Below, piece after piece: positions 2,614-3,006 of a stretch of 4,057 nt of DNA; positions within the stretch are counted from its first letter, which is position 1, and every line of letters begins with the position of its first letter. The stretch comes from Escherichia coli (GTDB lineage: Bacteria; Pseudomonadota; Gammaproteobacteria; Enterobacterales; Enterobacteriaceae), in the NCBI RefSeq assembly GCF_003334305.1, contig NZ_QOWS01000051.1; one strand, written 5' to 3'. Made by a program: the position numbers and the translations under genes. The notes under the pieces are model-generated. The model saw only the letters and a list, made by a program, of their open reading frames with translations, searched no databases and was not told where the DNA came from.

Positions 2614-3006
2614 TCATTGATGCAATTCGTAGATTTGAAGAAGTTCAACTGCCACATTTTTATTTTTACTATCGCAATTTTTATACCATACCCATGCTTC
2701 CGTATTTTTTACTTTTTTTAAATCATCCATAATAAAATCCCCACCAAAAACAGTAAAATACAATGTTTCCTCATTAAAAATAAAACTCACTGCCCCCCCC
2801 TCTTTTATTTTAATTTCCGCTTCATTTGTGTTCAAATCAACTTTTTTAATTACTCCATGTAAGTTGGGTTTTGATAGTTTTTCTACGCCACCATCAGGAG
2901 CGGGTAATATACATCGTTTAAGAACTTTAGCATTTGCACATCCAATAACCAAAATTAGAATGCACACTCCCATGTTAATCGCATTAACGTGTCTTAAAAC
3001 GTTCAT
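2614..3006 (-). CDS. Putative immunity protein for the Rhs C-terminal toxin; predicted lipoprotein (130 aa)
   Basis: ATG at 3004-3006 lies 23 bp inside the end of the Rhs gene (stop 2984-2986), the usual toxin-immunity coupling; GGAGAGAG upstream. N-terminus [28 protein letters not shown] has a positive n-region, a hydrophobic core and a lipobox-like V-I-G-C with Cys23 (also AxA-like ANA). AT-rich relative to the Rhs core. No homology recognised; the immunity role is inferred from position. Confidence 0.6.

Follow-up and report, generated by a model that had tools for sequence, protein, structure and literature searches.

Locus organization and base composition

The window analysed here is a stretch of 4,057 nucleotides of Escherichia coli chromosomal DNA (contig NZ_QOWS01000051.1). 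It contains the 3' part of an Rhs gene and, overlapping its end, a gene for a protein of 130 amino acids (aa). An earlier note on this DNA had proposed that the small gene encodes an exported lipoprotein conferring immunity to a toxin that is formed by the end of the Rhs protein and acts in the cell envelope. All relevant genes of the window were located on the minus strand (Table 1). The Rhs frame was open from the window edge at 4057 down to the stop codon at 2984–2986, and its core was separated from a C-terminal tip by a PxxxxDPxGL junction motif (3446–3475), which ends in DPLGL. The small gene had been described as starting 23 bp before the Rhs stop, and the coordinates of the two open reading frames (ORFs; 3006 versus 2984) bore this out, with an overlap at 2984–3006 in the same orientation. 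Downstream of the small gene, a hairpin (AGCATCACGTGATGCT) with a T-run likely represents the end of the rhs-immunity transcript; two terminator-like sites were observed in the region, compared with 0.4 expected from shuffled sequences.

The small gene was also AT-richer than the Rhs core, as the note had stated. The GC content was 60.9% in the Rhs core (3455–4057), 43.9% in the tip (2987–3439) and 32.6% in the small gene, and the GC content of third codon positions (GC3) was 0.74, 0.23 and 0.25, respectively. Since the GC3 of the tip was close to that of the small gene and both were far below that of the core, the break in composition coincides with the core/tip junction. The tip and the small gene thus appear as one compositionally foreign cassette grafted on the Rhs core.

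Table 1. Features of the Rhs tip and the overlapping immunity candidate, in coordinates of the window.
Feature	Position	Strand	Basis or remark
C-terminal part of Rhs core	3446..4057	(-)	Translation; ORF runs past the window edge
Rhs C-terminal toxin tip, predicted YkuD fold	2984..3445	(-)	153 aa + stop (2984–2986)
Shine–Dalgarno-like site GGAGAGAG	3015..3022	(-)	Within the Rhs coding sequence, 8–16 nt 5' of the Met1 ATG
Immunity candidate, 130 aa + stop	2614..3006	(-)	ORF; RefSeq WP_001101835.1 'hypothetical protein'
Predicted signal peptide, residues 1–22	2941..3006	(-)	Arg5 in the n-region; Kyte–Doolittle maximum of 3.5 at residues 13–22
Lipobox V-I-G-C, residues 20–23	2938..2949	(-)	PS51257-type rule and G+LPPv2 pattern
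A-N-A, residues 24–26, possible competing signal peptidase I site AxA|K	2929..2937	(-)	Read from the sequence
Conserved extended arm C32-ILPAPDGG...PNLHG, family motif C[VI]LPxPDGG	2863..2913	(-)	Alignment of 39 sequences; Cys32 at 2911–2913
Predicted small OB-like beta-barrel, residues 49–125, with FTVFGGD and WVWYKNC motifs	2632..2862	(-)	Cys111 at 2674–2676
Terminator-like hairpin AGCATCACGTGATGCT + T-run	2558..2573	(-)	About 40 nt 3' of the immunity stop

The Rhs tip as a probable YkuD-type peptidoglycan enzyme

The toxin tip matched the Pfam family YkuD (PF03734) in two scans, with E values of 3.9e-5 and 3.6e-5, and 30 of 44 tip homologues matched it at E ≤ 0.001. A profile search retrieved many relatives of the tip from Lysobacter, Acidovorax, Curvibacter, Gallionellaceae and metagenomes; most were fused to Rhs, and precomputed PF03734 matches existed for many of them. 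Fragments of the tip carried the NCBI name 'L,D-transpeptidase family protein'. Among the 44 aligned tips, the His, the Cys and the Arg following the Cys in the motif WxHGGG...GCTR were invariant. The E. coli tip reads WLHGGGSS...TMGCTR, with the predicted catalytic His encoded at 3158–3160 and the predicted catalytic Cys at 3092–3094. The gap between the two was 21 residues, compared with a canonical gap of 17–20 in the L,D-transpeptidase motif (PMC9638812).

The AlphaFold (AF2) model of the tip, built on the 44-sequence alignment, had a predicted local distance difference test (pLDDT) score of 90.3 and a predicted template modelling (pTM) score of 0.85. The only significant matches of this model in the PDB, as determined with Foldseek, were periplasmic peptidoglycan enzymes of the YkuD fold, to which all nine best matches belonged (probability 0.99–1.00, template modelling score 0.44–0.57, sequence identity 10–14%). 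The L,D-carboxypeptidases Csd6 (the top match), Bd1075 and Pgp2, several L,D-transpeptidases and DpaA were among them. Membership of the tip in the Tlde1/DUF2778 family (PF10908) was considered but found no support, as no PF10908 match was detected in the tip or its 44 relatives. Tlde1a gave no sequence match to the tip in the PDB and was missing from the significant Foldseek matches. The Pfam match, the invariant His, Cys and Arg and the fold matches independently support the claim that the toxin acts in the cell envelope, and the tip is very probably a peptidoglycan L,D-peptidase that needs the periplasm to act.

A related module was found without a full Rhs protein. On three contigs (L005, L006 and L007, 3001–3591), a stand-alone protein of 196 aa (P0041) consisted of a Sec signal peptide, the Rhs-core remnant RYVESDPIGL and a YkuD-like tip; its gene adjoined a transglutaminase-like gene and a gene for an exported putative immunity protein of 197 aa. 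The YkuD-like toxin module thus appears to be re-used outside Rhs.

A family of small exported proteins

A word-indexed protein search with the 130-aa protein retrieved only near-identical sequences of the E. coli type, and an exhaustive phmmer search was needed to find its family. This search gave 67 matches, most of which were full-length proteins of 117–162 aa. The query and 38 full-length matches were aligned, and it is to these 39 sequences that the counts of family members refer. The members, about 120–150 aa long, had a common layout in which an N-terminal hydrophobic segment was followed by the motifs C[VI]LPxPDGG, FT[VA][FY]GG and W[VI]W..C. Residues P35, D38, G51, G88 and G89 were invariant, and C32 and L34 were present in at least 90% of the sequences. 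A signal-like segment was present in 38 members as annotated. In the remaining one, P0054, it became visible once the ORF was extended upstream into the 3' end of the toxin gene in front of it, mirroring the overlap in E. coli. The claim that the protein is exported is supported by this segment in all 39 family members.

Cys32 and Cys111 were both present in 35 members and had been lost jointly in two of the four exceptions. This pattern fits a disulfide and hence an oxidizing, extracytoplasmic location; judged from the alignment, a Cys32–Cys111 disulfide is probable. In the AF2 model, the E. coli immunity protein folds as a small barrel resembling the oligonucleotide/oligosaccharide-binding (OB) fold. 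The conserved arm, which carries the C[VI]LPxPDGG motif, was modelled with pLDDT values of 90–92 and had no regular secondary structure, and residues 4–23 formed a lone helix.

Searches of family databases placed the protein in no established immunity family. Its only Pfam match was a weak one to DUF4367 (E 4.6e-4), and none of the 39 members matched the Pfam families DUF2195 (to which Tldi1a belongs), Imm57 or Imm16/DUF2750. NCBIfam gave no match for the toxin tip, for the immunity family or for a second family of exported proteins described below. Sequence searches of the PDB with the immunity protein and with its profile gave no match either. The immunity family is unnamed in Pfam or NCBIfam.

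A profile search of genome contigs for further loci yielded only one contig, which is E. coli-like but assigned to a Collinsella metagenome-assembled genome (MAG). The protein encoded on this 2.6-kb contig ('Collinsella sp.', JAIJJM010000460.1) shared 99% identity with the immunity protein of E. coli, and the contig probably belongs to Enterobacteriaceae and was mis-binned into the Collinsella MAG. One other relative, P0058 (175 aa), apparently contained two immunity domains in tandem, with WxW..C...DPDDVNP occurring twice and CxxPxPxGG between the copies.

Start codon, signal peptide and lipobox

The RefSeq annotation is the 393-nt form that starts at Met1. The Shine–Dalgarno-like sequence GGAGAGAG was located upstream of Met1, and nothing comparable was found upstream of Met12 (2971–2973), which the note had named as an alternative start. 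The hydrophobic core of the N-terminus comprised residues 12–22 and was followed by Cys23 (codon 2938–2940). The Met1 form passed both a rule in the style of PROSITE PS51257 and the G+LPPv2 pattern, with Arg5 within the first seven residues and the Cys at position 23 (allowed: 15–35). Among 200,000 shuffles of the same protein, 0.16% passed the PS51257-style rule and 0.07% the G+LPPv2 pattern. The VIGC sequence fits every position of the consensus [LVI][ASTVI][GAS]C. The Met12 form failed both lipoprotein rules because it has no Lys or Arg in the n-region and its Cys comes to lie at position 12. A cytosolic protein starting at Met12 was therefore rejected on the combined grounds that a Shine–Dalgarno-like site is missing, that both lipobox rules fail and that the signal segment is conserved throughout the family; the check favoured Met1.

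Export of the immunity protein is well supported. The call as a lipoprotein is based on the rule-based patterns and on the automatic name 'Lipoprotein' of an identical UniProt entry (A0A7Z1ELM7, Shigella flexneri). The few variant sequences from E. coli that were read had retained the lipobox. Canonical lipoboxes ahead of the domain were found in two other family members, P0071 (LAAC) and P0103 (VLAC), so that predicted lipid anchoring does recur in the family. Most relatives of the immunity protein appeared to carry signal peptides of the type cleaved by signal peptidase I.

Part of the lipoprotein claim thus stood as made, in that the VIGC lipobox with Cys23 is real and passes the rules when translation starts at Met1. 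Lipidation itself is only probable, in view of the relatives and of the ANA|K sequence considered below, and on the sequence patterns we lean towards a lipoprotein at a little better than even odds. According to the +2 rule, an Ala after the lipidated Cys directs a lipoprotein to the outer membrane. Because the E. coli protein has Ala at this position, Lol-dependent sorting to the outer membrane is predicted if it is lipidated.

Pairing with the toxin in other lineages

Toxin tips and members of the immunity family were found side by side in two unrelated metagenomic lineages. In the first (contigs L020 and L021), an Rhs tip that shares 52% identity with that of E. coli was directly followed by P0054, whose identity with the immunity protein is about 36%. 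In the second (contig L022), an Rhs protein of 918 aa had a tip with 47% identity, and the gene for P0207 began one base after the Rhs stop; P0207 clusters with P0074, which is 27% identical to the E. coli immunity protein. Since the diverged tips each had an adjacent, likewise diverged family member, toxin and partner have diverged together in three lineages.

The closest relative of the immunity protein, P0046 (about 50% identical), was encoded within an array of immunity genes. The array itself (contigs L010 and L011, about 400–8300) was a one-directional series of small genes that comprised, besides P0046, two Imm57 genes, a Rap1a-like gene, MafI2, DUF7668 and others, and it looks like an orphan immunity-gene island. 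Although the family has no Imm57 match, P0046 is thus flanked by Imm57 genes on L010.

Other branches of the toxin family were followed by a different family of proteins (L002, 3777–4331; L005, 3597–4190; L008, 3645–4253), which were 184–202 aa long, had Sec signal peptides in all three cases and shared conserved Cys residues. They had no Pfam match. These downstream proteins were also considered as homologues of the immunity protein and were rejected, since hhalign gave a probability of 1% and the alignment was unconvincing. Because two unrelated immunity families are both exported, it is strongly argued that the toxin family acts outside the cytoplasm.

Proposed mechanism and alternative explanations

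The interpretation that we favour is that the product of the 130-aa gene is the cognate immunity protein for an Rhs toxin which is delivered by a type VI secretion system (T6SS) and whose YkuD-fold tip acts on peptidoglycan in the periplasm; we estimate its probability at about three in four. The sequence evidence for the candidate immunity function consists of the gene overlap, the pairing with diverged tips in the two metagenomic lineages and the presence of P0046 in an immunity-gene array, and is in line with the earlier proposal. Taken by itself, the claim that the protein is exported and confers immunity to a toxin acting in the envelope is quite likely to be right. Delivery of Rhs as a polymorphic T6SS toxin is indicated by the junction motif and by Hcp, VgrG and tssB/tssC genes upstream in a matching genome (NZ_CP025916).

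In the proposed mechanism, translation of the immunity protein would start at Met1 and be coupled to that of rhs, and the product would be exported through Sec. The VIGC lipobox would then direct processing by Lgt and LspA, so that the mature protein begins at the lipidated Cys23, and, owing to the Ala at +2, the Lol system would place it in the inner leaflet of the outer membrane. In this position, the OB-like barrel, stapled to the CxLPxPDGG arm by Cys32–Cys111, would bind and block the tip delivered by sister cells. More speculatively, the disulfide-pinned arm might fill the catalytic cleft of the toxin.

Several observations weigh against this interpretation or parts of it. The YkuD match is weak for the E. 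coli tip itself (E ~4e-5), and sequence searches of the PDB with the tip matched only the end of the Rhs core and no other solved structure. The OB-like fold is generic and matched no known immunity structure, and we infer both the binding of the toxin by the immunity protein and the role of the conserved arm. As for the lipid anchor, only 5 of the 39 family members matched the lipobox rule. In two of these five the rule fired on a conserved, presumably disulfide-bonded Cys of the domain, and it therefore probably yields false positives in this family. In addition, the sequence directly after Cys23 offers a signal peptidase I site: ...GCANA|K of the E. coli protein aligned with ...ICSASA|K of P0046.

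These last points would be explained if the protein had the same immunity function in the periplasm but were soluble, with signal peptidase I cutting after Ala26 (C-A-N-A|K) and the lipobox being incidental. Such a protein would resemble most family members, whose signal peptides of the signal peptidase I type end just before the conserved Cys, and also Tldi1a, the immunity protein of Tlde1a, which is soluble and periplasmic and has a Sec signal (10.1101/2020.02.18.954545). However, VIGC meets the full lipobox consensus, the position of Cys23 and the charge of the n-region are typical of lipoproteins, the identical protein in UniProt is automatically annotated as one, and P0071 and P0103 have canonical lipoboxes upstream of the domain. 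We therefore regard a soluble protein as possible but rather unlikely.

Retention of the hydrophobic segment as an uncleaved anchor, which would yield a type II inner-membrane protein with its barrel in the periplasm, appears improbable. The single helix formed by residues 4–23 in the AF2 model would suit such an anchor, but the hydrophobic core of only about 11 residues (12–22) is short for a stable transmembrane (TM) helix, and a lipobox as well as an AxA site come after it. It is common for TMHMM to report a TM helix where a protein has a signal peptide. The immunity proteins of an Rhs-containing 'Tae7' branch were assigned one or more TM domains by TMHMM (10.1101/2020.02.18.954545), and this 'TM domain' could be a signal peptide like that of the E. 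coli protein.

It is also conceivable that the protein has no immunity function at all, being a small exported protein or lipoprotein of unrelated role that is carried along with the cassette, or a cytosolic product started at Met12. The OB-like barrel is shared with DUF5666 and DUF3221 proteins, whose function is unknown, and for several distant homologues the contig was too short for a toxin gene to be visible or the neighbours were unrelated. On the other hand, the position directly after diverged toxins was kept in three lineages, one member belongs to an immunity island, GC3 equals that of the toxin tip, and orphan copies were retained where the toxin was lost. The Met12 product in particular would lack a Shine–Dalgarno-like site and retain an 11-residue hydrophobic stub of a segment that is conserved across the family. 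We consider both possibilities very improbable.

A more far-reaching proposal, doubtful at present, extends the favoured interpretation of a cognate immunity protein. In this proposal, the protein would found an unnamed, widespread family of periplasmic immunity proteins specific for Rhs-borne YkuD-type toxins, each consisting of an OB-like barrel and a disulfide-stapled CxLPxPDGG arm that mimics a stem peptide and plugs the active-site cleft. The E. coli member would have become an outer-membrane lipoprotein by re-targeting, because its toxin acts at the interface of outer membrane and peptidoglycan (for example on Lpp–peptidoglycan links, as DpaA does). If true, this would be one of the rare cases in which an Rhs cage delivers an enzyme that acts in the periplasm.

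Comparison with known systems

The closest characterized counterpart is the pair Tlde1a/Tldi1a of the Salmonella Typhimurium SPI-6 T6SS, in which an L,D-transpeptidase-like effector, toxic only in the periplasm, is neutralized by a Sec-exported DUF2195 immunity protein (Sibinelli-Sousa 2020, preprint 10.1101/2020.02.18.954545; Lorente Cobo 2022, PMC9638812). For Tlde1a, a proven T6SS effector, Csd6 is the nearest structural homologue (PMC9638812), just as it was the top structural match of the E. coli tip. Both systems thus combine a T6SS toxin of the L,D-transpeptidase type of fold, with catalytic His and Cys and Csd6 as the nearest structure, with a small immunity protein that is encoded next to it and has a Sec signal. 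In contrast to Tlde1a, the E. coli tip matches YkuD, and neither it nor any of its 44 relatives matches DUF2778; the tip is delivered as part of Rhs, whereas Tlde1a is a small cargo of the Hcp type. Unlike Tldi1a, the immunity protein of E. coli does not match DUF2195, and it is predicted to be an OB-like barrel with a lipobox. The pair would therefore work like Tlde1/Tldi1, but the families differ, the toxin being YkuD and not DUF2778 and the immunity protein belonging to none of DUF2195, Imm57 and Imm16. Rhs-fused members, such as WP_052983304.1 of Shigella sonnei, had been noted, as had immunity proteins whose localization signals vary (10.1101/2020.02.18.954545); this S. sonnei accession did not appear in the cluster listings.

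Toxins of the L,D-peptidase type had been predicted earlier as fusions to Rhs and other delivery modules, with a subset of secreted or membrane immunity proteins that fits action at the cell surface (Zhang 2012; PMC3482391). The E. coli pair shares with these systems a predicted Rhs-linked L,D-peptidase tip and a predicted exported immunity protein. The immunity families assigned to the L,D-peptidase toxins in that work were Imm16/DUF2750 and Imm57, neither of which the E. coli protein matches, and immunity proteins with a lipobox were described as rare, Imm65 being the only one in the collection (PMC3482391). Rhs-fused L,D-peptidase toxins with exported immunity proteins had thus been described bioinformatically in 2012 and 2020, and a literature search found no paper that characterizes the E. 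coli pair.

With respect to the anchor, a parallel exists in enteroaggregative E. coli, where Tli1 is an outer-membrane lipoprotein that inhibits the phospholipase Tle1. Like the predicted form of the E. coli immunity protein, it is an exported, lipid-anchored inhibitor in the compartment in which the toxin acts. The toxins differ in being a phospholipase and a putative peptidoglycan L,D-peptidase, and neither a relation between the immunity folds nor a link of the Tle1 effector to Rhs is known. Csd6, Pgp2, Bd1075 and the YkuD L,D-transpeptidases, including DpaA (LdtF), have the same catalytic His/Cys arrangement as the tip and are all periplasmic peptidoglycan enzymes. Unlike the tip, these enzymes serve housekeeping or cell shape, have extra domains and are not secreted toxins, and the canonical motif has (S/T)HGC where the E. 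coli tip has TMGC.

Rhs is usually fused to toxins that act in the cytoplasm (PMC12994826), so that it was fair to regard a pair of this kind as unusual for Rhs, though the class had already been predicted in the literature. Most Rhs toxins investigated to date have a cytoplasmic site of action; the E. coli cassette looks like a case of periplasmic delivery. Its interest is moderate and lies in the unnamed exported OB-like immunity family, in an Rhs protein with a periplasmic enzyme and in the likely lipid anchor. The pair would be a tractable E. coli model for the release of periplasmic Rhs cargo, for the bond attacked by this YkuD branch and for its blocking by an OB-like protein. The practical gain is modest, consisting of better annotation for about 1000 'hypothetical protein' entries and for unannotated relatives in metagenomes.

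Distribution among E. coli genomes and genomic context

The segment at 2450–3500 was 100% identical in many complete E. coli genomes, and at least 80% of it was present in 912 of 5426. The immunity gene was found in 1003 of these genomes (at ≥80% coverage) and the toxin tip in 923, i.e., about 80 fewer. The cassette is thus present in about one-sixth of complete E. coli genomes. In NZ_CP025916, where the segment is 100% identical, the gene order was tssB/tssC, Hcp, VgrG, a 1410-aa 'RHS element core protein' and WP_001101835.1, after which an ISAs1 transposase gene, an orphan cassette and finally another Rhs were found. In other genomes, the island was located between yafV and tRNA-Asp.

Two genomes illustrate how the immunity gene persisted when the toxin gene was altered. 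In E. coli FAM21845 (NZ_CP017220), an orphan immunity gene truncated at its 5' end (L024, 4001–4360) adjoined an IS1 element, which has removed the T6SS and Rhs, the whole region being gone. In E. coli W5-6 (NZ_CP032992), a coding sequence of 3141 nt annotated as VgrG (L025, 7371–10511) had the same 23-bp overlap with the immunity gene, and because of this overlap it apparently ends in the YkuD-like tip. It seems that most of Rhs was deleted in this strain, leaving a fusion of VgrG and tip. The same VgrG annotation overlapping the immunity gene was observed in the further genomes H27, H28 and H41.

Neighbouring genes in the window

Downstream of the immunity gene, the window contained an ISAs1 (H-repeat) transposase gene (1299–2435, minus strand), with an in-frame TGA at codon 60 (2256–2258) in an otherwise full-length frame. 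The transposase gene at the same place was intact (378 aa) in strains W5-6 and FAM21845 and was split by an IS66 insertion in NZ_CP025916. Behind ISAs1 was an orphan cassette (357–1296, minus strand) of two ORFs of 159 aa (817–1296) and 64 aa (357–551), for which a matching genome has the annotations 'hypothetical protein' and 'DUF3969 family protein', respectively. The 159-aa ORF had a glycine-zipper-like N-terminus (GGPPGMLVGAAVGAVVIGGG), and the part of the cassette at 357–816 was AT-rich (31% GC). The cassette is probably a displaced pair of toxin tip and immunity gene. Positions 1–276 (minus strand, 64% GC) encoded the PAAR-like N-terminus (MSGKPAARQGDMT...) of the next downstream Rhs gene. 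The second Rhs in NZ_CP025916 was annotated as frameshifted and was followed by ydcD.

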